NCBI GenBank assembly: GCA_964556835.1
Contig: CAZKXV010000001.1
Location: 1-34,433 of the forward strand
Length of the DNA: 34,433 bases
Source: an uncultured Clostridia bacterium
GTDB lineage: Bacteria; Bacillota; Clostridia; Christensenellales; CAZKXV01
Direction of reading: 5' to 3'
Positions 17,179 through 29,836 of this stretch are shown in pieces. A model generated the notes under the pieces. It had not been told where the DNA came from, made no database searches, and worked only from the letters and a program-made list of their open reading frames with translations. The position numbers were made by a program, and so were the translations under genes. Positions within the stretch are counted from its first letter, which is position 1; each line of letters starts with the position of its first letter.

Positions 17179-17208
17179 AGCACACCGCAGTACTGCGGTG
17201 TGCTTTTC
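17179..17208 (+). terminator. Rho-independent terminator after purA
   Basis: Perfect palindrome AGCACACCGCAGT/ACTGCGGTGTGCT followed by TTTT. Confidence 0.8.
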
Positions 17209-17222
17209 TCTTGCCCTATTAG

Positions 17223-17251
17223 TTGTATATGTTTATTCTATGTGCTATAAT
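17223..17251 (+). promoter_or_regulatory. Candidate extended -10 promoter of the DegT-family gene
   Basis: TTGTAT - 17 nt - TATAAT with TGc immediately upstream of the -10. It lies between the purA terminator and the RBS AAGGAG at 17262. Confidence 0.5.
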
Positions 17252-17275
17252 TTGCCTATTCAAGGAGATAGCAAA

Positions 17276-18466
17276 ATGAGCATTAAGTTTTCAAGAGCAG
17301 ACATTACAGAAGAAGAGATTAAAGAGGTTGTTGATACCCTGCATTCAGGATATATTACTACCGGAACAAAAACTAAGGATTTCGAAAAACAGCTTGCAAC
17401 TTTTTGTAATGTGAAGAAAGTCGCCTGTTTGAATTCAGCTACTGCTGGGCTTGAACTAATATTAAGGGTACTCGGAATAGGTGCAGGCGATGAGGTCATT
17501 ACTACTGCTTATACTTATACTGCAACCGCAAGTGTGATAAGTCATGTGGGGGCAAGAATTATATTAGTAGACACACTTAAGGGTAGCTATGAGATAGATA
17601 GTATGGGGATTGAGAATGCAATAACTTCTAGAACTAAGGTAATTATTGCGGTGGATATTGCGGGCAAGATATGCGATTATAATAAGATTTATCAAGCTGT
17701 GGAAGCAAAGGTAGACTTATTTGTGCCTAGTAATGACATTCAAGAGCGTATGGGAAGAATTGCAGTTATTGCAGATGGCGCCCATAGTTTTGGAGCCCAA
17801 AAGAATGGAATACTTAGTGGCAGCTTTGCTGATTTTACTGTATTTAGTTTTCATGCAGGCAAGAATTTGACCGTTGCTGAGGGTGGTGCAATAGCTCTTA
17901 ATGAATGTGATTTCTATGATACTGAAGAAATGTACAAGCAATTTATGATTTTTGGACTACATGGTCAGACAAAGGACAGTTATAGCAAAGAAAAATTAGG
18001 TGCGTGGGAATATGATATTGTGACACTTGGTTATAAATGTAATATGACAGATATCTCTGCAAGTATAGGCAAGATTCAACTAGCTCGATATCCTAAAATT
18101 CTAGAAAGAAGAAAAGAAATAATATCTATATATAATGACGAACTCGGTGACTTAATTGAAGTAATAGACCTATGTAATAATAAGGAATTATCAAGTGGTA
18201 CATTATACATGACAAGAATACCGAATAAGACGGAGCTTGAGCGTAATAATATAATTCTAGCGCTTGCTGAGGAAGGCATTCCTACAAATGTTCATTTCAA
18301 ACCGTTACCTATGTTCACAGCTTATAAGAGGCTAGGGTTCGATATCAAAGATTTCCCTAATGCTTATAACCAATATGCAAATGAAATAACATTGCCCTTG
18401 CATACGCTTCTAACTAATGAAGATGTGTATAAGATTATTAAAGCATTTAAGATATGTATATCTTGA
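17276..18466 (+). CDS. DegT/DnrJ/EryC1/StrS-family PLP-dependent aminotransferase
   Basis: The family PLP-lysine motif is FSFHAGKNLTVAEGG, with LNSATAGLEL upstream. The start is set at the ATG preceded by AAGGAG, because the 17198 start in the ORF track overlaps the purA terminator and the promoter. Confidence 0.85.
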   Translation: MSIKFSRADITEEEIKEVVDTLHSGYITTGTKTKDFEKQLATFCNVKKVACLNSATAGLELILRVLGIGAGDEVITTAYTYTATASVISHVGARIILVDTLKGSYEIDSMGIENAITSRTKVIIAVDIAGKICDYNKIYQAVEAKVDLFVPSNDIQERMGRIAVIADGAHSFGAQKNGILSGSFADFTVFSFHAGKNLTVAEGGAIALNECDFYDTEEMYKQFMIFGLHGQTKDSYSKEKLGAWEYDIVTLGYKCNMTDISASIGKIQLARYPKILERRKEIISIYNDELGDLIEVIDLCNNKELSSGTLYMTRIPNKTELERNNIILALAEEGIPTNVHFKPLPMFTAYKRLGFDIKDFPNAYNQYANEITLPLHTLLTNEDVYKIIKAFKICIS

Positions 18467-18527: not shown

Positions 18528-19553
18528 ATGATTAATATTGGAATTATTGGAATGGGCAGAATTGGGCGTGTACATATGGAAAGTATATGTACTAGTGTCC
18601 CTGAAGCGAAAGTAGTAGCTATTGCAGATCCTTACTTAACTAGCGAAACCGAAACCCTTGCCCTAGAGAAATACAAGGTACTTAATGCCTACAAAGATTA
18701 CAAAAAAATCCTATCTGATGATAGTATTGATGCGGTGGTGATTTGTTCATCGACTGATACACATTCAGCTATCTCAATTGAAGCGCTTAAAGCGGGTAAA
18801 CACGTTATGTGTGAAAAGCCTATTGATACTGACTACAAAAGAATAATAAAAGTGGTCGAGGCTGTGAAAGAGAACAGTCATTTGAAATTTCAAGTTGGGT
18901 TTAATAGAAGATTTGACCATAATTTTATGGCACTTAAGGAACAAAGTAAGAATCTAGGTGCTATTCACATTATTAAGATTACATCACGTGACCCTGCTCC
19001 ACCACCAATTGAGTATATCAAAGTATCGGGGGGATTATTCAATGATATGATGATTCATGACTTAGATATGGTGCGTTTTTTGTCCTCATCTGAAGTGGAA
19101 GAAGTTCACGTATATGGCGGAGCCTTAGTAGATAAACGCATAGGCGAGGCAGGCGATATTGATACTGCTATCGTTAGTATGAAATTATCAAGTGGCGCTT
19201 TCGCTGTTATTGATAATTCAAGACAAGCTGTGTATGGATATGACCAGAGAGCTGAAGTATTCTGTGCAAATGGTATGGTATGCTCAGAAAACGATGCCCC
19301 AAGTACAGTGAAAGTAGTTACATCTAGTGGTGTAAATAGTGAAAAACCACTACATTTTTTCCTTGATAGATATATGCAAGCATATGCAAAAGAGCTAAAA
19401 TGTTTCGTAGAAGCAATAATAAATGATACGCCGACTATTTGTAATGAGACTGATGGTCTAAAACCATTCTTGATAGCTAAAGCGTGTGCAAAATCATTAT
19501 TAGAAAGTAGACCTGTGACAATAGCAGAAATTGAAGAAGAGTTAAGCAGATAA
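18528..19553 (+). CDS. iolG: Inositol 2-dehydrogenase (Gfo/Idh/MocA family)
   Basis: Rossmann motif IGIIGMGRIGRVH, then CEKP and VGFNRRFDHNF motifs of the IolG/IdhA type. It is adjacent to iolE/D/B. Confidence 0.75.
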   Translation: MINIGIIGMGRIGRVHMESICTSVPEAKVVAIADPYLTSETETLALEKYKVLNAYKDYKKILSDDSIDAVVICSSTDTHSAISIEALKAGKHVMCEKPIDTDYKRIIKVVEAVKENSHLKFQVGFNRRFDHNFMALKEQSKNLGAIHIIKITSRDPAPPPIEYIKVSGGLFNDMMIHDLDMVRFLSSSEVEEVHVYGGALVDKRIGEAGDIDTAIVSMKLSSGAFAVIDNSRQAVYGYDQRAEVFCANGMVCSENDAPSTVKVVTSSGVNSEKPLHFFLDRYMQAYAKELKCFVEAIINDTPTICNETDGLKPFLIAKACAKSLLESRPVTIAEIEEELSR

Positions 19554-19623: not shown

Positions 19624-20514
19624 TTAATAATTAAGTGATTTTGTTATGTAATCATATGCATATTTTGCATAAGCTAAGGGGTTCGCTTTTTTCGGGTCTT
19701 GTTCAGCCTCAACTACTAACCAGCCTGTATAATCATTTTCTTGTAAGACTTTGAATATTGGGTTAAAATCAATATTGCCATCGCTAGGCACAGTAAATAC
19801 TCCTTCGATAACTGAGTCTAGAAAGCTAAGTTCATTGACTAATGCACCAGCAAGTATAAAATTACGAGTATCTTTCAAGTGAATGTGTTTGATACGCTTA
19901 ATATATTTATTAAGCAAGAATAAAGGGTCAATATCATCATAAGAACAATGACCAGTATCGAATAATAAATTGACATATTGAGGATTAGTAGCTTCCATAA
20001 ATCTATCAATTTCAGCTATTGTCTGAATGCCGGTGCACATATGATGATGATAACTCATTACCATTCCTTTGTCGTATGCTATCTTACCTAATTTGTTAGC
20101 ACCTGCAATAACACTCTCCCATTGGGATTCATTAAAAGCAGACTCTCTGACAGTTACAGGAATATTCTTCTGTTGGGTTGAAGTACCTTGTTCGCTAATC
20201 CCTATATTAGTGCAACCTATAGAAAGTAAGAAATCACAGAACTCTATAAATAATTTCTCAGTATATTCGTAAGGCTTAGTTGATAGGTATGTACTGAACC
20301 AAGAATTGCAAATCTTCAAATTTCTTAATGATAATTCATTATTTAGTTCGGTAGCATCTTTTGGGAAACAACCTCCTAATTCAGTACCGCTAAAACCTGC
20401 TTGTGCTACTTCTTCTAGAATTTGTTTGTAACATGTACCTTTTCCAAGTTCGGGTAGGTCATCATTTACCCAGCCAATAGGCGCTATAGCTAATTTAATA
20501 TTGCTTTTGGTCAT
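19624..20514 (-). CDS. iolE: Inosose dehydratase
   Basis: LAIAPIGWVNDD N-terminus, YHHHMCTGIQT, and VVEAEQDPKKANPL motifs match B. subtilis IolE closely. The RBS is AAGGAG. Confidence 0.85.
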   Translation of the reverse strand: MTKSNIKLAIAPIGWVNDDLPELGKGTCYKQILEEVAQAGFSGTELGGCFPKDATELNNELSLRNLKICNSWFSTYLSTKPYEYTEKLFIEFCDFLLSIGCTNIGISEQGTSTQQKNIPVTVRESAFNESQWESVIAGANKLGKIAYDKGMVMSYHHHMCTGIQTIAEIDRFMEATNPQYVNLLFDTGHCSYDDIDPLFLLNKYIKRIKHIHLKDTRNFILAGALVNELSFLDSVIEGVFTVPSDGNIDFNPIFKVLQENDYTGWLVVEAEQDPKKANPLAYAKYAYDYITKSLNY

Positions 20515-20516
20515 CT

Positions 20517-22445
20517 TTAGTATCTCCTTGATTTATTCAATTCCTTTTTCATCGCTTTTGTTGCGATTGTAATACTTTCTTTTTCTGCAATTTCAGCATT
20601 TCCAACTCTCCAGAATGATTCATATCCATCAGTCATAGTCTTAGGTAATACTTTTATATCAATTAAGGTACTGACAGTTTGTTTCTTTGAGTCCTCTATT
20701 GCTTGAATTAATTGTTGTTCATTTTTAACCGTATAAGTAATACAACCATAGGCCTTTGCATTCATTGCATAGTCAACTTTAACTAATTCGCCATTAAGTC
20801 CACTGGCTGTTCTTTTTCTTGTTTCTGTGAAGAAACTACCCATGCCGTGTCCCATTTGTAGATTGTTAATGCACCCGAATGAAATATTATCAAAGACAAG
20901 TACATTTATTTTCCTGTTTTCTTGTATGGAAGTCAAAAGCTCTGAATTAAGCATCATATATGAGCCATCGCCAACAAAAGCATAAACTTCTTTGGTAGGT
21001 TCAGCGAGTTTCGCTCCCAGTGCGCCTGCAATCTCATATCCCATACAGCTATAACCGTATTCCATATGATATGTATTAGGGCTTTTAGGTCGCCATACTC
21101 TTTGCATATCGCCAGGGAGTGAGCCGCTTGCTCCAACAACTATTGCGTCTGTTGCGAGTAAATTATTTATGATGCTAAGAACTCTGGTTTGGGTTAGGGT
21201 AGAGCCATTAATTGCGATATATTCGTCTATTTTATCATCAAGGTGTCCACTTATTTCTGGAATGAAATTATCTTTATACTTAATATTATCTAGTCTATCC
21301 AATTCCTTTATCCAAGCTTTTTTAGCGTTTAAGTATTCGTTAGTATAAGCCGACCTATATGAGATTTCTGCAAGCTCAGAGGCGATAGCTTGTAGTGCGA
21401 CTTTCGCATCAGCACAAACTCTTACAGCGTCTAGTTTATAGCAGTCGAATGCAGCTATATTTATATTGAGATAATCCACATTAGGATTCTGAAAAAGCCA
21501 CTTAGAAGAAGTGGTAAAATCGGTATATCTAGTTCCTACTCCAATAACTAAGTCGGTCTCTTTTGCGATAATATTTGCACTAAGGTCGCCAGTTGTTCCA
21601 ATCCCACCAAGGTTATATGGGTTATCCCAAACTATTGCGGATTTGCCTGCTTGTGTTTCTGCAAAAGGTATATTAAAAGCTTTTGCAAATTCTAGCAATT
21701 CTGCACCAGCCTCGCTATATTTGACACCACCACCACATATTAGTAGGGGTTTCTTTTTTGACTTAATTAATGCTATGGCTTCTTTAATCATATATGGTGT
21801 AGCGGGCGTTCTTTCTATGCGATGCACTCGTTTATCGAAAAAAGAAACTGGATAATCGTAAGCCTCGCCTTGTACATCTTGTGGTAGACAGATTGTTACC
21901 GCACCTGTTTCAGCAGGGCTAGTGAGTACCCGCATTGCGTTAATCATGGAGGACATAAGTTGTTCGGGTCTGGTTATTCTGTCCCAGAACTTGCTTACTG
22001 CCTTAAATGCATCATTTGTGGATACTGTTAAATCGTTAAACTGTTCAAGCTGTTGTAGAACAGGGTCAGGCTGTCTATCTGCGTATACATCTCCCGGTAG
22101 TAACAATAATGGCAATCTATTAGCCGATGCAGTTGCGGCTGCAGTTAACATATTAGCTGCGCCTGGTCCTACTGAAGAGGTGCAAGCATATATTCTCTTT
22201 CTTAGGCTTTGTTTGCCGAATGCGGCTGCAGCATGCGCCATTCCCTGTTCATTCTTCGCTTGATGAACGACTAATCTTCCGCCTCGCTCCTCTAATGCTT
22301 GTCCTAATCCTAATACATTTCCGTGTCCAAATATTGTAAATACTCCCTCAACAAAAGGTTCTTCTCTATCATCGAATGCTACATATTGGTTCTTAAGGAA
22401 TTCTATAAGTGCTTGAGACATGGTTAATCTAATAGTTCTGCTCAT
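20517..22445 (-). CDS. iolD: 3D-(3,5/4)-trihydroxycyclohexane-1,2-dione hydrolase (ThDP-dependent)
   Basis: [20 protein letters not shown]-terminus and ThDP motif [12 protein letters not shown]. The start is set at the ATG at 22445, which makes an ATGA overlap with the iolB stop and has GGGGG upstream. The ORF track gives 22460. Confidence 0.9.
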
Positions 22446-23236
22446 TTTTCTGACCCCCATATTTTCGCATTAGAGTCATTGACCCAAGTATGCTCTTCTA
22501 CAAATGTAGGAGTAATGTATCTGTCATTTTCTAAGTGTCTGATTACCCATACGTATAACATTGCGTAACCGGGTGCTGTTGTCTGGGGATGCGTTGCTCC
22601 TGCGGGTATTAATACGGCATCATTTTCTCTTACTTTCACCACATCTTCGCCTAATTCGCAGAAACCATATCCATTGACAGGATTGAATTTGTAGAAATAT
22701 ATTTCTGGTTGTGGATGATGATGAGGCGGATAACTAGACCATTTACCGGGGTAATCTATCACTTCGCCTAATACTAAGTTTGCATAAGGGGCATTGCTAT
22801 TATCGAATATTGTACGCACATTCCTTGTGCTTGTATCGCCCATTGTACCTTTGCCACGCATTTCAGATGCAACATCTTCTGATGAGTAAAATACAGGTTC
22901 AAATTCGTTATTATTTGTAGTTGCTTGATATACTAACTCCGCTTGTTTGCTAGTGCATATTATCTCGACTTTAACTCCTTTGGGGATATGCAGGCATACA
23001 CAAGATACATTAAATGGATTAGAACGCTCCGCTTTAATACTTTTTCCATTGTAATTGAAAATGACACTGCCTTTCATAAGTAAATATGCACGCTCAAGAG
23101 GTTCTTCATTTACTATTTTATCACCACTTTCGAGAAGAAATAGTCCAAAGTCCATTAATGCACTTTTATAGTTGCCGTTCATTTCAGTAATGCTGTTGTA
23201 TCCTCTGATATAGGGTGAATCTGATCTTATTCTCAT
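22442..23236 (-). CDS. iolB: 5-deoxy-glucuronate isomerase
   Basis: Cupin-type protein with the [16 protein letters not shown] motif of IolB. It is the first gene of the iolB-D-E operon. Confidence 0.85.
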
Positions 23237-23372: not shown

Positions 23373-23402
23373 TTGCCATTATTTGCGTAAATGGTGTATA
23401 AT
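23373..23402 (+). promoter_or_regulatory. Candidate promoter of the lacI-gap-pgk-larA-like operon
   Basis: TTGCCA - 18 nt - TATAAT. The spacer contains the near-palindrome ATTTGCGTAAAT (23381-23392) with a central CG. Confidence 0.4.
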
Positions 23403-23439
23403 GAATAAATTATGATGATTATCTTATGTGGAGCAGGAG

Positions 23440-24453
23440 ATGACTAAATACGATGTAGTAACAATTGTTGATATAGCTGAACGTATAGGTGTATCATGTG
23501 CTACTGTTTCACGTGCATTAAATGGCAAAAAGGGTGTTGGAGAGAGAAAACGCAAAATGATAATTGAATTGGCGAACGATTTGTGTTATGAACCAAATGC
23601 TATTGCGCAAGGCTTAAGAGAGAAAGCATTTAAGACTATTGGTTTAGTAATTCCCGATATTGCAAATCCATTATATCCTGCTATAGCTCGTGGTGTTGAG
23701 GACAAGGCTTTAGAATATGGGTATAATGTATTTTTATGTAATAGTAACTGGAGTGTTGAGATTGAGCAGACGCAGATCAAATCATTAAAACAGCTTAGAG
23801 TTGCGGGGTTAATACTTAATCCTACTTCTGATATTTTTGAAGATAATTATAAAGACACTAATATACCTAGTGCATATATTAGTTCAAGGCTAGATGAAAG
23901 GTATAAGCCTTATGTGGGAGTTGATAATGTTCAAGCAGGCTTCATTGCGACTGAATACTTAATTAAATGTGGTTATACTAGAATAGGATTTATCGGTGGA
24001 ACTGCAAAATCTTATGATAGCGAGACTAGATACGAGGGTTATCTCAAAGCGCTTAAACACTATGGCTTAAATTGCGATGAAAGTTTATGCGAATTCGGTT
24101 GGTATAGCTTGAGAAGTGGTAAGAATATCATGACTAAGCTACTTGAACTTGACAATCCATGCGATGCGGTTTTCTGTGCTAATGATACTATAGCTATAGG
24201 GGCGCTGAGCGCTGCTAATAGTATGAATATAAGTGTACCTGATGAGTTAGGTATTATGGGTTTTGATAATATAAGTATGGCAGAAATTCCACAACTTGAG
24301 CTTAGCACAATTTCTATTCCTAAGTATGAAATGGGAGTAGCCGCAGTGGAATTGCTAATGCAAGTTATACAAGGAACAGAGGGCGAAGAGCATAAAGTTC
24401 TTGAACCTGAATTAATAATAAGAAAAACAACAAAAAAATTGTTCGGAGGATAA
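23440..24453 (+). CDS. LacI-family transcriptional regulator
   Basis: N-terminal HTH VTIVDIAERIGVSCATVSRALNG followed by a periplasmic-binding-protein-like sugar-binding core. The ATG at 23440 has GGAG 6 nt upstream. The ORF track starts at the GTG at 23428. Confidence 0.9.
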   Translation: MTKYDVVTIVDIAERIGVSCATVSRALNGKKGVGERKRKMIIELANDLCYEPNAIAQGLREKAFKTIGLVIPDIANPLYPAIARGVEDKALEYGYNVFLCNSNWSVEIEQTQIKSLKQLRVAGLILNPTSDIFEDNYKDTNIPSAYISSRLDERYKPYVGVDNVQAGFIATEYLIKCGYTRIGFIGGTAKSYDSETRYEGYLKALKHYGLNCDESLCEFGWYSLRSGKNIMTKLLELDNPCDAVFCANDTIAIGALSAANSMNISVPDELGIMGFDNISMAEIPQLELSTISIPKYEMGVAAVELLMQVIQGTEGEEHKVLEPELIIRKTTKKLFGG

Positions 24454-24454
24454 G

Positions 24455-25480
24455 ATGAATAAAATTAAAGTAGCAGTAGTAGGATATGGCGTTATAGGTC
24501 AAAGATTAGCAGATGGAGTAAGTTATCAAGCAGATATGGAGTTAGTGGGTATTGTTGATGCCGCTCCAACTCTCACAATGATGACTTTACTAGAAAAGGG
24601 TATGCCATATAAAGTATATGCGGCTTTTCCTGAAGCAAAAGAACAACTTGAAAATGCAGGTATTCCAGTAAGCGGACTAATGACAGACATATTACAACAG
24701 GTAGATGTTGTACTTGATGCAACTTCTGCGGGTATTGGTGCGAAGAACAAAGTGCTTTATGAGAAATATAATGTCAAAGCTATCTTCCAAGGCGGAGAAA
24801 GTAATGATGTGGCAGATGTATTCTTCCATGGATATGCTAATTATGAGAAAGCCTTAGGCAAAAGCTTCTTGAAACTTACTAGTTGCAATACTACAGGTCT
24901 AATTCGTGCGGTTGATTGCCTTGACCGTATGGTCGGCATAGAAAAGATAGCTATTACAATCGTAAGAAGAGTAGCTGACCCTGGTGATTATCATAGAGGC
25001 TTGACCAATGCCCTACAAGTAGATAAAGCTCCTAGTCATCAAGCTCTTGACTTGATGACCATTATGCCACATATCGAGGCTACTGGTATTCTTGTTCATA
25101 CACCTATTACACACGGACATTTTATTACTGTAGTTGCTACTCCGAAAAAAGATATTTCTGTAGAAGAAGCTATTAACGCTTTTAGAGCTCATCCAAGAAT
25201 TAAGATGGTTACAATCGACCAAGGCTTCTTAGGTAATGCTTCTGTATTCAAATATGCTAGAGACTGTGGCAAACTGCGTGGTGATGTATATGAGATATAT
25301 GTATGGGAAGATTTAATTGTGAAATCTGGCAAAGATATTATGTTTGGTATACATATTCCACAAGAATCCGTAACTATTCCAGAGACAATAGATGGTATCA
25401 GAGCACTTATGAATATGCAAATTGATAGAATTGAAGCTACTAATGAAACCAATAAATACTTAGGTATGGAGCAGAAATAA
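24455..25480 (+). CDS. Class II (archaeal-type) glyceraldehyde-3-phosphate dehydrogenase homolog
   Basis: The protein is collinear with archaeal GAPDH: VVGYGVIGQR, GIGAKN..KAIFQGGE, catalytic TSCNTTGL (Cys144, nt 24884-24886), VRRVADP, and QESVTIPE. The bacterial GapA signature SCTTN is absent. The RBS is GGAGGA. The gene starts 1 nt after the lacI stop. Confidence 0.85.
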   Translation: MNKIKVAVVGYGVIGQRLADGVSYQADMELVGIVDAAPTLTMMTLLEKGMPYKVYAAFPEAKEQLENAGIPVSGLMTDILQQVDVVLDATSAGIGAKNKVLYEKYNVKAIFQGGESNDVADVFFHGYANYEKALGKSFLKLTSCNTTGLIRAVDCLDRMVGIEKIAITIVRRVADPGDYHRGLTNALQVDKAPSHQALDLMTIMPHIEATGILVHTPITHGHFITVVATPKKDISVEEAINAFRAHPRIKMVTIDQGFLGNASVFKYARDCGKLRGDVYEIYVWEDLIVKSGKDIMFGIHIPQESVTIPETIDGIRALMNMQIDRIEATNETNKYLGMEQK

Positions 25481-25481
25481 T

Positions 25482-26720
25482 ATGAAAATGAACAGGTTAT
25501 CCGCCTATGACTATTCTAATAAGACCGTACTAGTCAGAATAGATATTAATTCGCCAATAGACAGTATTACAAAGAAAATTGTAAGTAGGAACAGATTAAC
25601 AAAATCTATTCCCACTTTGAAATATTTGATTGACAGTGGTGCTAAAATCGCAATTATAGCTCATCAAGGGGACACTTTAGATTACTATAACTTAATCTCT
25701 ATGCAAGAGCATAGCGAGATACTAAGCGAGTTATTAGGACAAAGCGTAAACTACATAGATGATGTAGCAGGCGATTGTGCAATCGAAGCAGTTAAGAACT
25801 TGAAGAGTGGGGAAATAATATTGCTAGGAAATTTGAGGTATCTTGCCGAAGAAATTTCCACATTTGAAGAGGTAGTGAAACTTACCCCAAATGAAATGTT
25901 AGATTGCTACCTTGTAAGAAGATTGGCGCCATTATTCCAATATTATATAAATGATGCTTTCAGTGCAGCGCATAGAAATGCACCATCAATGGTCGCTTTT
26001 CAAGAGCTATTGCCGAGTGTAGCGGGCGAGTTGTTTTATACAGAAATAGAGAACCTTGACCGTATTATGAGTGCACCTAATAAACCATCTGTGTTCGTTC
26101 TTGGCGGTGCTAAGATTTCGGATGCTTTCGGAATGATGGAACAAGTTCTTATGAATGGTACAGCGGATACTATTCTAACCGCTGGTGTGACAGGGCTTGT
26201 CTTTATGATAGCAGATGGTATAGATGTAGGAAAGATGACAAACAAGTTCTTGGAAGATAGAGGATTAACTAGTTTCATCGATGATGCTAGAAAATATCTT
26301 AAAACCTATCCAAATAAAATTAAGTATCCAATAGATATATGTTATGCCGAAGCGGGGATACGTTACGAAGTTACTTGTGATAAGTTACCACTTGAAAAGA
26401 GTTTTCTTGATATAGGTTCATTAACTATAGCAAGTTACCAGAAAATATTATTGGAGGCGAAAACCATATTTGTAAATGGTCCAGCAGGGGTATACGAGCA
26501 AGAAATATTTGCGATAGGAACTTGTGATATTTGGAAAGCTATAGCCGCTAGTAATGGGTACAGCGTTATAGGTGGCGGTGATACCGTTAGTGCAGCATCG
26601 AAATTTATAGACCTTAAAGATATTGGTTATGTATGTACAGCAGGGGGTGCAATGGTTCGTTACCTGAGTGGAAAGACGCTTCCCCTTATAAAGGCGATGC
26701 AGAAAGCTTACAAAGAATAA
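25482..26720 (+). CDS. pgk: Phosphoglycerate kinase homolog, archaeal-like
   Basis: PGK motifs VLVRIDINSPID, IIAHQG, LLGNLRY..EE, NDAFSAAHR, VLGGAKISD, and IGGGDTVSA are present in order. Length is 412 aa. The gene starts 1 nt after the GAPDH homolog. Confidence 0.85.
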   Translation: MKMNRLSAYDYSNKTVLVRIDINSPIDSITKKIVSRNRLTKSIPTLKYLIDSGAKIAIIAHQGDTLDYYNLISMQEHSEILSELLGQSVNYIDDVAGDCAIEAVKNLKSGEIILLGNLRYLAEEISTFEEVVKLTPNEMLDCYLVRRLAPLFQYYINDAFSAAHRNAPSMVAFQELLPSVAGELFYTEIENLDRIMSAPNKPSVFVLGGAKISDAFGMMEQVLMNGTADTILTAGVTGLVFMIADGIDVGKMTNKFLEDRGLTSFIDDARKYLKTYPNKIKYPIDICYAEAGIRYEVTCDKLPLEKSFLDIGSLTIASYQKILLEAKTIFVNGPAGVYEQEIFAIGTCDIWKAIAASNGYSVIGGGDTVSAASKFIDLKDIGYVCTAGGAMVRYLSGKTLPLIKAMQKAYKE

Positions 26721-26750: not shown

Positions 26751-28004
26751 ATGATTACTCATAATCTTAAGTTTAATAAAGAAATCCTAAGTTTCGATAT
26801 TGAAGAAGACAACTTAATTAGCTGTCTTATTCCTAATGCTATAGATTATGAATTTAAGAGTACAGAGGCGGTTAGAAATGCTATACTTAATCCTATAGGA
26901 ACAGCTCGCTTAAAAGACATTGTAAGTAGAGGTGAAACTGTTGCAATAGTTACTAGTGATATTACTAGACCTATGCCATCTAAGACCGTTCTTCCATTTG
27001 TGATAGAAGAATTACTTGAGGGCGGTATCAAAGAGTCAGATATTTTCATTGTGCTTGCACTAGGAAGTCATAGAAAGCACACAGCCGAAGAAATGAAATA
27101 TTTAGTAGGTAATGATATTTATAATAGTGAAATAAGAGTAATGGACAGCGATATGGAAGATTGTGTTTGCTTAGGTAAATGTAAGAATGGAACACCAGTA
27201 GATATTTATACGCCAGTAGCTGAAGCGGACAGAGTTATTTGCTTGGGTAATGTCGAATTTCATTATTTTGCAGGATACAGCGGAGGTGCGAAAGCACTTA
27301 TGCCAGGGGTATCAAGTTGGGAAGCAATACAAGCTAACCATTCTAATATGGTCAAGGCGGGTGCAGAAGCGGGTAATTTGATTTCTAATCCAGTTCGCCA
27401 AGATATTGAAGAAACAGCAGAATTTATTAAGATAGATTTTATTGTTAATGTTGTACTAGATGATAAGAAAGAGATTGTAGGGGCAGTAAGTGGACATTAT
27501 TCTAAAGCACATAGAGTAGCTTGCAAAATGTTAGATAGACTATACTCTGTAGATATTGAAAAGAGAGCTGATATTGTGGTCGTTTCGGCAGGCGGGTATC
27601 CTAAGGATATCAATATATATCAAGCACAAAAAGCGTTAGATAACGCAAAAGGCGCTGTTAGAGAAAGCGGGATTATAATTCTAGTAGCAAGTTGTAAAGA
27701 GGGGTTTGGAGAGCATACTTTCGAAGAGTGGATGACTACAATGACACCTGATAAAATGATAGATACAATCAAAAAAGATTTTAAGCTTGGGGGACATAAG
27801 GCAGCAGCTATCGCTATGATACTCAAGAAAAATAAGATTTTTCTTGTTAGTGATTTGGATAATGCGATAGTTCGTAGTATTGGTTTTGAGCCATTTGCGA
27901 CTGTTGATAATGCTCTTTATCAAGCATATAAGGAGATAGGGGAGAAGGCACAACTATACATTATTCCTTATGGAGGCTCAATTCTACCTAAACTAAAGAT
28001 ATGA
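26751..28004 (+). CDS. LarA-family nickel-pincer-nucleotide-dependent 2-hydroxyacid racemase/epimerase homolog (DUF2088 type)
   Basis: SDITRP, LGSHR (His107), FHYFAGYSGGAK (His171, Lys181 at nt 27291-27293), and ANH (His197). The spacing is the same as His108/His174/Lys184/His200 of L. plantarum LarA. Confidence 0.85.
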   Translation: MITHNLKFNKEILSFDIEEDNLISCLIPNAIDYEFKSTEAVRNAILNPIGTARLKDIVSRGETVAIVTSDITRPMPSKTVLPFVIEELLEGGIKESDIFIVLALGSHRKHTAEEMKYLVGNDIYNSEIRVMDSDMEDCVCLGKCKNGTPVDIYTPVAEADRVICLGNVEFHYFAGYSGGAKALMPGVSSWEAIQANHSNMVKAGAEAGNLISNPVRQDIEETAEFIKIDFIVNVVLDDKKEIVGAVSGHYSKAHRVACKMLDRLYSVDIEKRADIVVVSAGGYPKDINIYQAQKALDNAKGAVRESGIIILVASCKEGFGEHTFEEWMTTMTPDKMIDTIKKDFKLGGHKAAAIAMILKKNKIFLVSDLDNAIVRSIGFEPFATVDNALYQAYKEIGEKAQLYIIPYGGSILPKLKI

Positions 28005-29836
28005 AAAAAAAGAGTTATATTATATTTTTCTTGATTATACTAGCTTTAATTGCTAGTCTTTCTGCATGTAATTTCAAAGATAATCAAACAATTACAATTA
28101 GTTTCCATAATAATGGAGGAACTGGAGTTATGTCCAATATGGAAGTAGATATTAATTCAGATGTGACCATTATTGAGAATACATTTACTAGAGAGGGATA
28201 TGATTTCAGCGGTTGGGCATTTTCGGCTGAGGGAGAAGCATTAGCTTATAGTGGCGAAGAATACCGTATAGGTGAATTGGATATTGAACTATACGCTGTA
28301 TGGACACTTAGCCCTAATATAATAATCTTTCATTCGAATAATCAAATTGATATTACTACAAACATTGATATATTTTATGGTGAGATAATAGCTCTGCCAT
28401 TTAATACTTTTGAAAATGAAGGATATATATTTGGAGGTTGGGGATTAACTGCGGACTCAGAAGTTATTTTTGATGATGGTGCAAATTATACTTTTAATAT
28501 CAGACAAGATATTAACTTATACGCAATCTGGTATGAGTTGAAATATACAGTATCGTATAATACAACGAATGGATCGGGCGAAATGTCAGACTACCTAGCT
28601 TATGAAGGAGAGTCATTGACCTTAACTTTATGTAACTATTCCTATAATCATCGTGACTTCTGCGGTTGGGCAACGGTTACGGGAGGCGAGGTAATACACC
28701 TAGATGGTGCAGAAATTGAGATTAATGGTGATTTGAATTTATATGCAGTCTGGGCGATAGTTGATTATACTATCACTTTGGATTATAATGAACTTGCTAC
28801 TAATACTACTCTAGAAGTGCAAGCATTAGGTCAAGTTGCACTACCTCTTGCAGAGGAAATTACTGGTATGAGTTTTGATGGTTGGTATTTCGATAGTCAA
28901 TATACGCAATCCATAAACTTCCCATATGCAATAATCAGCGACCATACTATATATGCGAAGTATTCTCCATTATATGTAGTCAACTTCTATGATTATGATG
29001 ATACTCTACTTAAGACTTCCTATGTGCAAACTGGTGCTAATGCTGAAGCACCAAGCGAACCTACAAGAGAGGGATATCAATTCGACTGCTGGAATAATAG
29101 CTATATAAGCATTACTTCATCAATAGATATTTATGCTCAGTATAATGCTCTAGAATATACGGTCACATTTAACTCAAACGGTGGAACTGGAACAATGCAA
29201 GATTTTTCCGTTTTATACGAAACTTCAGCAAATTTACCTGCAAACCTTTTTGTTAGAACAAATTATAGATTTCTAGGATGGTCGCAGGAAGCACTGGGCA
29301 GTGCTATATATGAGGATAATGGTATCTTTACTATGAATTTATTAGGAGTCACACTGTATGCTATATGGGAATATGGGATAGAATACTTATATTGCGAACT
29401 TTCAAATGGTTATACTATTACTAATGTACTACAGGGCACTAAAATGGTGGAGATTCCTAATACATATGATGATGGCTTAAATGGTACAGCAGAGGTATTA
29501 ATTATAGGCGAGGAAGCCTTTATGAATAATGATGTACAATCAGTTATCTTAGGTGAAAACATAACCAAAGTTGAGATAAATGCTTTTAAGGGTTCAACTG
29601 TAAGTGATATAACTTTGAATGAAGAGTTAACAGAGATAGGAAATTATTGTTTCAAAGATTGTATAAGTCTAACTTCAATAATTATTCCAAGTGGTGTGGA
29701 TATAGTGGGTATTGGCATCTTCTCGGGGACAAATACTGATGTATATTGTATACGTGGTATAGAAGGAGTGGGCTGGGATACTTCTTGGGACAATGAAATG
29801 GAAGGTATCGTTATATGGAATTATACGGAGGTCTAA
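28001..29836 (+). CDS. Surface lipoprotein with about 6 Listeria-Bacteroides-type (Flg_new) repeats and a C-terminal BspA-type leucine-rich repeat region
   Basis: Signal peptide with lipobox LSAC (Cys23). Repeating ~70-aa units of the form F..NGGTG.M......REGY.F.GW........LYA.W. The C-terminus has LRR units (I.I..NAF...T.L..I.IP..V..IG). The ATGA overlaps the upstream stop. Confidence 0.8.
   Translation: MKKKSYIIFFLIILALIASLSACNFKDNQTITISFHNNGGTGVMSNMEVDINSDVTIIENTFTREGYDFSGWAFSAEGEALAYSGEEYRIGELDIELYAVWTLSPNIIIFHSNNQIDITTNIDIFYGEIIALPFNTFENEGYIFGGWGLTADSEVIFDDGANYTFNIRQDINLYAIWYELKYTVSYNTTNGSGEMSDYLAYEGESLTLTLCNYSYNHRDFCGWATVTGGEVIHLDGAEIEINGDLNLYAVWAIVDYTITLDYNELATNTTLEVQALGQVALPLAEEITGMSFDGWYFDSQYTQSINFPYAIISDHTIYAKYSPLYVVNFYDYDDTLLKTSYVQTGANAEAPSEPTREGYQFDCWNNSYISITSSIDIYAQYNALEYTVTFNSNGGTGTMQDFSVLYETSANLPANLFVRTNYRFLGWSQEALGSAIYEDNGIFTMNLLGVTLYAIWEYGIEYLYCELSNGYTITNVLQGTKMVEIPNTYDDGLNGTAEVLIIGEEAFMNNDVQSVILGENITKVEINAFKGSTVSDITLNEELTEIGNYCFKDCISLTSIIIPSGVDIVGIGIFSGTNTDVYCIRGIEGVGWDTSWDNEMEGIVIWNYTEV

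Follow-up and report, generated by a model that had tools for sequence, protein, structure and literature searches.

An archaeal-type glyceraldehyde-3-phosphate dehydrogenase and phosphoglycerate kinase pair of bacteria as a putative ATP-forming module for inositol-derived D-malate semialdehyde

A 34,433-nt stretch of DNA from an uncultured Clostridia bacterium (contig CAZKXV010000001.1 of assembly GCA_964556835.1; hereafter the window) contains two adjacent genes, here called GAP2 and PGK2, whose products are homologs of the archaeal or type II glyceraldehyde-3-phosphate dehydrogenase (GAPDH) and of the archaeal-type phosphoglycerate kinase (PGK). We are strongly persuaded that the pair is a pathway-specific module leading from an aldehyde to ATP and not a piece of glycolysis, and we favour, with more reserve, a scheme in which GAP2 and PGK2 would turn the D-malate semialdehyde derived from inositol into D-malate and ATP. 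It is from sequence and gene context that we infer which substrate this scheme uses and in which direction it runs, as well as the participation of a transketolase and the yield of ATP. In enzymatic terms, GAP2 is proposed as a putative phosphorylating, NAD-dependent D-malate-semialdehyde dehydrogenase and PGK2 as a putative ATP-forming malyl-phosphate:ADP phosphotransferase. The features of the window on which the argument leans most are the following:

24455..25480, + strand: GAP2, type II (archaeal-type) GAPDH homolog of a bacteria-only clade, assigned by hidden Markov models, by sequence and fold matches to the Protein Data Bank (PDB) and by clade-specific alignment columns.
24557..24559, + strand: codon of Asp35, where the M. 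fervidus GAPDH has the NADP-determining Lys33 (from the alignment; Asp in 122 of 122 clade members).
24878-24901, + strand: TSCNTTGL motif of GAP2, from the translation.
24884..24886, + strand: codon of the catalytic Cys144, equivalent to M. fervidus Cys140 and invariant in 122 clade and 40 canonical sequences.
25031..25051, + strand: PSHQALD motif, where Gln196 (codon 25040-25042) replaces the anion-site His194 and His195 is kept as the equivalent of His193 (translation and alignment).
25482..26720, + strand: PGK2, archaeal-type PGK homolog starting 1 nt after GAP2 (PF00162, 2CUN).
25671..25673, + strand: codon of Asp64 of PGK2, within AHQGDT, at the Arg65 position (alignment).
26751..28004, + strand: LarA homolog of the LarAH6 family of nickel-pincer malate racemases (NF052593).

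The reading frame of GAP2 is intact and encodes 341 amino acids (aa), occupying exactly positions 24455-25480 of the + strand, with a GGAGG ribosome-binding site before its ATG and a start located 1 nt past the stop of a LacI-family gene. Its product matched both NCBIfam equivalog models for type II GAPDH, NF003251 with 393.9 bits (cut-off 185) and TIGR01546 with 293.1 bits (cut-off 232.9), and aligned end to end with the solved GAPDHs of Pyrococcus horikoshii (2CZC), Methanothermus fervidus (1CF2), M. jannaschii (2YYY) and Saccharolobus solfataricus (1B7G), with E values from 4e-73 to 2e-61 and identities of 34-40%. An AlphaFold model of GAP2 (pLDDT 89.4, pTM 0.89) superposed on these four structures with TM-scores of 0.91-0.92 and a root-mean-square deviation of 2.0-2.3 Å, compared with a TM-score of only ~0.65 for class I GAPDH and erythrose-4-phosphate dehydrogenase. 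A first-pass annotation of the window, made from its letters, had already described a type II GAPDH homolog collinear with the archaeal enzymes and keeping Cys144 in SCNTTGL, a description that the models, the PDB alignments and the fold now confirm. The GC content is even along the window, and the neighbouring genes are bacterial (LacI, the methionyl-tRNA synthetase MetRS, KsgA, CarAB and proteins with Listeria-Bacteroides repeats). Altogether, GAP2 is a genuine archaeal-type GAPDH homolog in a bacterial context, far beyond what chance would give.

Close relatives of GAP2 form a clade that was only found in bacteria and whose members appear in the public records under the name of type II GAPDH. 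The protein collection held more than 120 proteins with 72-79% identity to GAP2, the named ones coming from Clostridia and Spirochaetota, and a collection of 185,579 species genomes yielded at least 573 matching stretches, out of which 80 loci were kept for the comparison of gene contexts; these belong to Bacillota, Spirochaetota, Gammaproteobacteria, Lentisphaerota, Atribacterota and Planctomycetota. The carriers include cultured species, among them Clostridium magnum DSM 2767, Parasphaerochaeta coccoides and Sinanaerobacter chloroacetimidivorans. At 50% clustering there is a clear step in identity, from 61-66% for members of the clade to 44% at most for other sequences. The GAP2 relatives make up a single branch of a 95-row tree, with full support in the Shimodaira-Hasegawa-like approximate likelihood ratio test (SH-aLRT 100), a stem length of 0.51 and short internal branches, which stands within a mostly archaeal family but separate from the group comprising all four solved archaeal enzymes. 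By this tree and by the identity of at most 44%, GAP2 is not among the orthologs of the characterised archaeal GAPDHs. When a sample of 399 genomes of the window's class was inspected, GAP2 was present in nine of them, each from a different family, and missing from all 15 genomes of the same order, a patchy distribution that fits horizontal spread. The genome of the window also encodes a class I GAPDH, whose gene is divided between the ends of two contigs, and a PGK of the bacterial kind, and the same is true for all eight other carriers in the class sample, where class I GAPDH is above its cut-off, the bacterial PGK scores 538-585 bits and both genes are adjacent in several cases, as in a normal gap-pgk operon. 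GAP2 is therefore a paralog beside an ordinary GAPDH in all carriers tested, and the early suspicion of a horizontally acquired paralog has gained ground from the retention of class I GAPDH in eight of eight carriers, from the occurrence in 9/399 genomes and from the long-stemmed branch in a mostly archaeal family.

Some deviating sequences were observed in and around this clade. Three long-branched proteins nested inside it (P0128, P0132 and P0133, 39-42% identity) lack the catalytic Cys, reading PQPSLVGM, SNYNINGL and PIGMVLGL where GAP2 has SCNTTGL, and may be pseudo-enzymes or perform a different chemistry. About 20 type-II-GAPDH-like representatives (e.g., P0165, P0179, P0195 and P0227) make a branch of their own with the motif VRC(A/S)TDPDK, in which a Cys replaces Arg168 while SCNTT and SHH are kept. 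In one carrier of the same class (G307:C1:1935615-1938593), the GAP2 match is interrupted by an in-frame TAG and the LarA match beside it extends over only 180 of the 415 positions of the profile, so that this copy of the module may be decaying.

The residues of the active site were numbered after 122 close relatives had been aligned to 40 canonical-like type II sequences, the latter comprising those of the four PDB entries, and the sites were assigned, in M. fervidus numbering, following a review of the work of Charron et al. 2000 (PMC12041015). As summarised there, an anion site occupied by sulfate comprises Ser139, Asn141, Arg167, His193 and His194, and the phosphate of glyceraldehyde 3-phosphate (GAP) is assigned to Arg167 and Arg168; Lys33 is likewise given in a review as the NADP determinant of the M. 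fervidus enzyme. The equivalent residues of GAP2 are Ser143 (Ser139), Cys144 (Cys140), Asn145 (Asn141), Arg171/Arg172 (Arg167/Arg168), His195 (His193), Gln196 (His194) and His222 (the catalytic His219). Where the archaeal structures have PSHHGPD (PSHHAKD in that of Saccharolobus), the codons at 25031-25051 of the window spell PSHQALD, as the first-pass annotation had pointed out; since the review lists His194 in the anion site, this shift from PSHH to PSHQ affects a residue named as an anion ligand. All 122 clade members have Gln and all 40 canonical-like sequences have His at this position, which makes it the cleanest discriminator of the whole alignment and indicates that PSHQ variants are not common among normal archaeal GAPDHs. 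Four more changes are found in 122 of 122 clade members (Lys33 to Asp, Leu217 to His, His221 to Ile and His299 to Pro), and Arg136 to Lys is a further clade-invariant one. The anion site of GAP2 is thus incomplete, with four of its five residues kept and His194 lost, so that the pocket residues are not all conserved, and the alterations at His194, Leu217, His221 and His299 agree with the changed phosphate or substrate pocket initially suspected for this protein. The catalytic residues Cys144 and His222 are invariant both in the clade and in the canonical sequences. Arg171 and Arg172 are invariant in the clade as well, and carboxylates are bound by arginines equally well. The NADP determinant is absent, with Asp35 at the Lys33 position in every clade member, which suggests a preference for NAD and a catabolic direction. 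Following the Arg-Arg pair, the loop DPGDYHRGLTN (residues 175-185, window 24977-25009) is invariant in 30 aligned clade members and is the only internal segment of the GAP2 model with a pLDDT below 50, and may be a mobile substrate-binding loop.

The change of His194 to Gln was considered and rejected as a marker unique to the clade, because PSHQGPD occurs in a Dehalococcoidia lineage. The proteins in question (P0144, P0159, P0226 and P0236) form a separate lineage including metagenome-assembled genomes of Dehalococcoidia and also have Asp as the residue of the NADP site. Only the GAP2 clade combines HQA[LVI]D with the other four changes.

A comparable change is found in PGK2, which matched PF00162 with 347.5 bits and has 2CUN, from P. 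horikoshii, as its best PDB match (E 1.5e-90). Its Asp64 stands at a position which we take to be that of Arg65, a 3-phosphate ligand of PGKs and part of a basic patch of His62, Arg65, Arg122 and Arg170. The motif around this position is HxGRP in bacteria and eukaryotes, HQGKP in P. horikoshii and AHQGDT in PGK2; at the residue itself, 2CUN has a Lys and a mycobacterial PGK an Arg, and the PGK2 proteins linked to GAP2 have Asp (56/60) or Ser (4/60), never Lys or Arg. As PGK2 keeps the equivalents of Asp23, Asn25, Arg38, His62, Arg122 and Arg170, its basic patch for the 3-phosphate is incomplete by the loss of the Arg65-equivalent, with those of His62, Arg122 and Arg170 in place. Together with the Gln of GAP2, a phosphate-contacting position has then been changed in both enzymes.

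These complementary and invariant changes are difficult to reconcile with the simplest explanation of the pair, namely an ordinary phosphorylating GAPDH with its PGK, taken from archaea and kept as a second set for glycolysis or gluconeogenesis under common regulation with sugar catabolism. The likeness to the archaeal enzymes is real, as scores above curated equivalog cut-offs, the type II GAPDH label of the databases, an identical fold and the conservation throughout the clade of Ser139, Cys140, Asn141, Arg167, Arg168, His193 and His219 all speak for a GAPDH. Nevertheless, all carriers tested already possess a class I GAPDH and a bacterial PGK, and the clade is a separate, long-stemmed branch, so that we consider an ordinary GAPDH highly improbable. 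Compared with the archaeal GAPDHs, GAP2 differs in its bacteria-only clade, in five changed positions, in the invariant DPGDYHRG loop, in being an extra copy beside class I GAPDH and in its location in catabolic operons instead of central metabolism. GAP2 should not be filed as a bona fide GAPDH because it lacks orthology with the characterised enzymes, a complete anion site and the NADP determinant; we rather regard it as a neofunctionalised protein with the fold and the superfamily of type II GAPDH.

The operon context, which had escaped the first-pass annotation as to the logic of its PGK, LarA and iol genes, points to a new substrate for GAP2. The LarA protein encoded downstream of PGK2 reached 540.7 bits with the equivalog NF052593 (cut-off 500), and the LarAH6 family has been experimentally characterised as malate racemase with a side activity on tartrate (PMC11770544). 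On the other side of the LacI-family gene, the window encodes the first enzymes of myo-inositol degradation:

18528..19553, + strand: IolG, inositol 2-dehydrogenase (TIGR04380, 428.4 bits, cut-off 355).
19624..20514, - strand: IolE, myo-inosose-2 dehydratase (TIGR04379, 364.6 bits, cut-off 290).
20517..22460, - strand: IolD, thiamine pyrophosphate (TPP)-dependent ring-opening acylhydrolase (TIGR04377, 930 bits, cut-off 715).
22442..23236, - strand: IolB-type 5-deoxy-glucuronate isomerase of the KduI/IolB family, divergent (PF04962, 171 bits).

For the kinase IolC, the best match in the genome of the window scored 115 bits against a cut-off of 300, and no gene for IolA (malonate-semialdehyde dehydrogenase) was found in the window. 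The IolB-type gene scored 97 bits with TIGR04378, below its cut-off; that such a weak score could mark a route-specific isomerase was rejected, given that IolC-type clusters of the same class score equally low.

The open reading frames of the 80 loci and the window were clustered, and a GAP2 frame was recovered in 68 of the 81, many of the 68 loci being incomplete. In 60 of these 68 loci, PGK2 is the next gene after GAP2 and has its orientation, the two frames often overlapping by 10-19 nt, and within 10 kb of GAP2 we found LarA in 37 loci, IolD in 25, malic enzyme in 23, transketolase in 19 and a transaminase in 11. The following arrangements occur:

Arrangement A (spirochaetes and this window): IolG-IolB-IolD-IolE-GAP2-PGK2-(malic enzyme)-LarA.
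Arrangement B (Clostridium, Caloramator, Fonticella, Thermincola): ATP-binding cassette (ABC) transporter-(malic enzyme)-GAP2-PGK2-split transketolase-IolB-IolD-IolE.
Arrangement C: sigma-54 activator-transaminase of the gamma-aminobutyrate (GABA) type-GAP2-PGK2-malic enzyme-LarA, with a tripartite ATP-independent periplasmic (TRAP) transporter.
Arrangement D: HpcH aldolase, 2-hydroxyacid dehydrogenase, aldehyde:ferredoxin oxidoreductase (AFOR) and KduI with GAP2-PGK2-malic enzyme-LarA.
Arrangement E: clusters of Gammaproteobacteria that encode a cupin protein and proteins lacking a Pfam match.

The product common to the contexts with LarA, iol genes, malic enzyme, transketolase and transaminase would be a C4 hydroxy-dicarboxylate. 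These contexts also bear on the reading as an ordinary GAPDH, since the iol clusters with the pair lack IolC, so that no triose phosphate would come from the cluster, and the pair is equally found in transaminase, malic enzyme and LarA operons without any link to triose phosphates. As for the Gammaproteobacteria, GAP2-PGK2 was seen in marine representatives (Rariloculaceae and relatives; L039, L064, L067, L072, L073, L082 and L091), in loci with a cupin, two conserved Pfam-less proteins of ~313 and ~157 aa, an Amidohydro_2 protein and an S15 peptidase.

The same sample of 399 genomes of the class was used for a test at the genome level. IolD is present in 19 of them, comprising six of the nine GAP2 carriers (co-located in five) and 13 of the 390 non-carriers (Fisher p 4e-7). 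IolC, which was counted when above its cut-off or when truncated right beside IolD, is absent from all six genomes with both GAP2 and IolD and present in nine of the 13 with IolD but without GAP2 (Fisher p 0.011). A LarA of the malate-racemase type (>=500 bits) occurs in eight of the nine carriers, in comparison with two of the 13 IolD genomes without GAP2 (Fisher p 0.0015), although all three p-values overstate the association because the sampled genomes are related.

We propose the following route for these observations. Inositol would be converted by IolG, IolE, IolD and IolB into 5-dehydro-2-deoxy-D-gluconate, a compound that, when read from its keto end, is a 2-ketose with the D-threo configuration at C3/C4. 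This is the configuration required of transketolase donors. A transketolase, which is encoded in the cluster and split in many relatives and would be supplied from elsewhere in the genome of the window, could then remove the C1-C2 ketol unit and leave D-malate semialdehyde (3-hydroxy-4-oxobutanoate). This molecule, OHC-CH(OH)-CH2-COO-, amounts to D-glyceraldehyde-3-phosphate with a carboxylate instead of the phosphate ester. On GAP2 it would form a thiohemiacetal with Cys144, to be oxidised by NAD+ to a thioester whose phosphorolysis would release malyl phosphate, and PGK2 would use the acyl phosphate to phosphorylate ADP, with ATP and D-malate as the products. The LarAH6-type racemase would finally convert D-malate into L-malate for malic enzyme or central metabolism, and the presence of a racemase and a malic enzyme in the clusters would be explained because D-malate cannot enter central metabolism directly. 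The transaminase context could be accommodated as well, as 4-amino-3-hydroxybutyrate would yield the same aldehyde.

A different substrate for the same chemistry, from aldehyde to acyl phosphate to ATP, is the likeliest alternative, although we see it as rather unlikely. Candidates include succinate, tartronate, tartrate and malonate semialdehydes, 2-hydroxy-4-oxobutanoate, 5-deoxy-glucuronate and unphosphorylated glyceraldehyde. The pocket changes reveal an altered phosphate-binding environment and not the ligand itself, and the gene contexts leave room for several of these compounds: the linked transaminase passes the GABA transaminase model (TIGR00700, 513 bits, cut-off 507) and GABA would give succinate semialdehyde, tartrate is also epimerised by LarAH6-type racemases, and the contexts with HpcH aldolase, AFOR and KduI, as well as the gammaproteobacterial clusters of unknown proteins, do not fit the inositol scheme. 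Against them, no pocket residue varies between the five arrangements, a point in favour of one substrate for all, and the commonest partners are precisely a malate-racemase-type LarA and malic enzyme. Moreover, achiral compounds such as succinate, malonate and tartronate need no racemase, a direct oxidation of 5-deoxy-glucuronate would make IolB pointless, and the action of transketolase on the IolB product gives, by established stereochemistry, exactly D-3-hydroxy-4-oxobutanoate. D-malate semialdehyde remains for these reasons our preferred substrate.

The direction of the reaction could also be the reverse, from carboxylate to acyl phosphate to aldehyde in the manner of aspartate kinase and aspartate-semialdehyde dehydrogenase, or GAP2 could be a non-phosphorylating enzyme with PGK2 in an unrelated role. 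GAPDH and PGK are reversible and the archaeal type II enzymes mainly gluconeogenic, and a synthetic malyl-phosphate route is reported to run reductively (PMC5481828). The neighbourhood of the pair is catabolic, with iol genes, transporters, malic enzyme and LacI or sigma-54 regulators, and all clade members have Asp where the NADP-binding Lys33 would be, which points to NAD and to a role in catabolism. Furthermore, the strict adjacency of GAP2 and PGK2 and the overlap of their frames argue for a shared acyl-phosphate intermediate and so against a non-phosphorylating GAP2. Altogether, we give very little credit to either possibility, and the oxidative, ATP-forming use of D-malate semialdehyde is followed in the rest of the discussion.

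The proposed route shares its parts with several known systems. The first four enzymes of the myo-inositol pathway of the Bacillus subtilis type (IolG, IolE, IolD, IolB, IolC, IolJ and IolA) are also those of the window, with IolG, IolE and IolD above their equivalog cut-offs and an IolB whose low score is typical of the lineage. Its kinase branch (IolC, the aldolase IolJ and IolA) appears replaced, there being no IolC in the six genomes with GAP2 and IolD, and IolJ not having been searched for; the proposed substitutes are transketolase, GAP2, PGK2 and the malate racemase. In the sulfo-transketolase (sulfo-TK) pathway of Clostridia, a split transketolase cleaves a non-phosphorylated, acid-terminated ketose and the resulting aldehyde is oxidised with substrate-level phosphorylation. 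The terminus is a sulfonate there and would be a carboxylate here, and the sulfo-TK pathway makes its ATP through an acyl-CoA and a phosphotransacylase, whereas the GAPDH and PGK homologs would do so in the proposed route. The same conversion of 3-hydroxy-4-oxobutanoate into D-malate has been reported in the carnitine catabolism of Acinetobacter baumannii, where malic semialdehyde is oxidised stereospecifically and D-malate has, as in our scheme, a specific follow-up (PMC11353897). In that case, the enzyme is unrelated to GAP2, a non-phosphorylating member of the aldehyde dehydrogenase (ALDH) superfamily yielding no ATP, and D-malate goes to a decarboxylating dehydrogenase and not to a racemase. 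Finally, aspartate kinase with aspartate-semialdehyde dehydrogenase (ASADH) and the engineered malate kinase with malate-semialdehyde dehydrogenase interconvert a C4 acyl phosphate and a semialdehyde, as GAP2-PGK2 would do, and likewise pair a GAPDH-superfamily enzyme with a kinase. These two routes are reductive, act on the carboxyl distal to the substituent and use a kinase of another family than PGK2, and the engineered one was reportedly built for want of a known natural one (PMC5481828).

Several facts weigh against the D-malate semialdehyde route. GAP2 scores above the cut-offs of the two NCBIfam equivalogs for true type II GAPDH, and both arginines for the phosphate of GAP are kept, so that GAP2 may have residual or even full activity on GAP. 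The change of His194 to Gln is not simply mapped to the substrate-phosphate site, as His194 is part of the Pi-like site that adjoins Cys140, and the same change alone is also found in the separate Dehalococcoidia lineage that keeps GPD. Regarding the context, the cluster of the window has no transketolase, and the split transketolase on contig C13 of its genome joins the clostridial group through a branch as long as 1.02, which makes its tie to the cluster-linked transketolases uncertain; beside it there is a gene similar to IolA or methylmalonate-semialdehyde dehydrogenase (MMSDH; 536 bits). Some contexts, the gammaproteobacterial ones in particular, are without LarA, malic enzyme or iol genes. 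LarC and LarE are needed for the LarA cofactor, and neither larC (PF01969) nor larE (TIGR00268) was found in the 86%-complete assembly, where the search for larB gave PurE-sized AIRC matches only. To these points must be added the relatedness of the genomes behind the statistics.

In a full-text search of the literature, which covered few subscription journals, neither the GAP2-PGK2 pair nor an inositol route that depends on transketolase was found described, and the same holds for a phosphorylating malate-semialdehyde dehydrogenase of natural origin. We lean slightly towards the view that the pair represents a natural ATP-yielding malyl-phosphate step which, together with transketolase and the nickel-pincer malate racemase, makes up a kinase-free and aldolase-free fermentation of inositol, and which is also a shared end-module for other C4 aldehyde-acids, in at least 573 of the 185,579 species genomes. 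If so, the names type II glyceraldehyde-3-phosphate dehydrogenase and phosphoglycerate kinase would be wrong for hundreds of public bacterial genes, and an inositol route would be missing from the metabolic models of gut, sediment and digester anaerobes. The textbook inositol route consumes one ATP, whereas the proposed one would yield ATP. This would be a clear example of two consecutive glycolytic enzymes adapted jointly to a carboxylate instead of a phosphate ester, and a natural counterpart of the malyl-phosphate chemistry that had to be built by protein engineering.

The remaining features of the window concern the limits of the operon and its surroundings:

23373-23402, before the LacI-family gene: promoter-like TTGCCA-18-TATAAT motif.
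23428..24453, + strand: LacI-family regulator, first gene of the operon, with ATG 23440 as the likely start (profile matches).

No terminator-like site was found on the + strand between positions 23100 and 30700 of the window. Downstream of LarA, and overlapping its stop by 4 nt, a frame of 611 aa (28001-29836, + strand) encodes six Listeria-Bacteroides repeats and a leucine-rich repeat region of the BspA type, and may be co-transcribed with the GAP2 operon. Directly upstream of iolG there is an aminotransferase of the DegT/DnrJ/EryC1 family (17198-18466, + strand); inosose aminotransferases are among the members of this family, so that the locus might handle an aminocyclitol too.

Elsewhere in the genome of the window, a malic enzyme on contig C86 is 60% identical to the cluster-linked ones, the split transketolase of contig C13 is 53-57% identical to its cluster-linked counterparts, and a second N-terminal transketolase subunit is encoded on contig C39. 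The transketolase of C13 belongs to a second catabolic cluster (C13:8221-15881, minus strand; L014 and L095), with the order IolD-like TPP enzyme (28% identity), GFO/IDH/MocA oxidoreductase, split transketolase, a 208-aa protein, a 240-aa protein and the MMSDH-family gene, the 208-aa protein presumably resembling a sugar-phosphate isomerase and the 240-aa one an IclR-type regulator.

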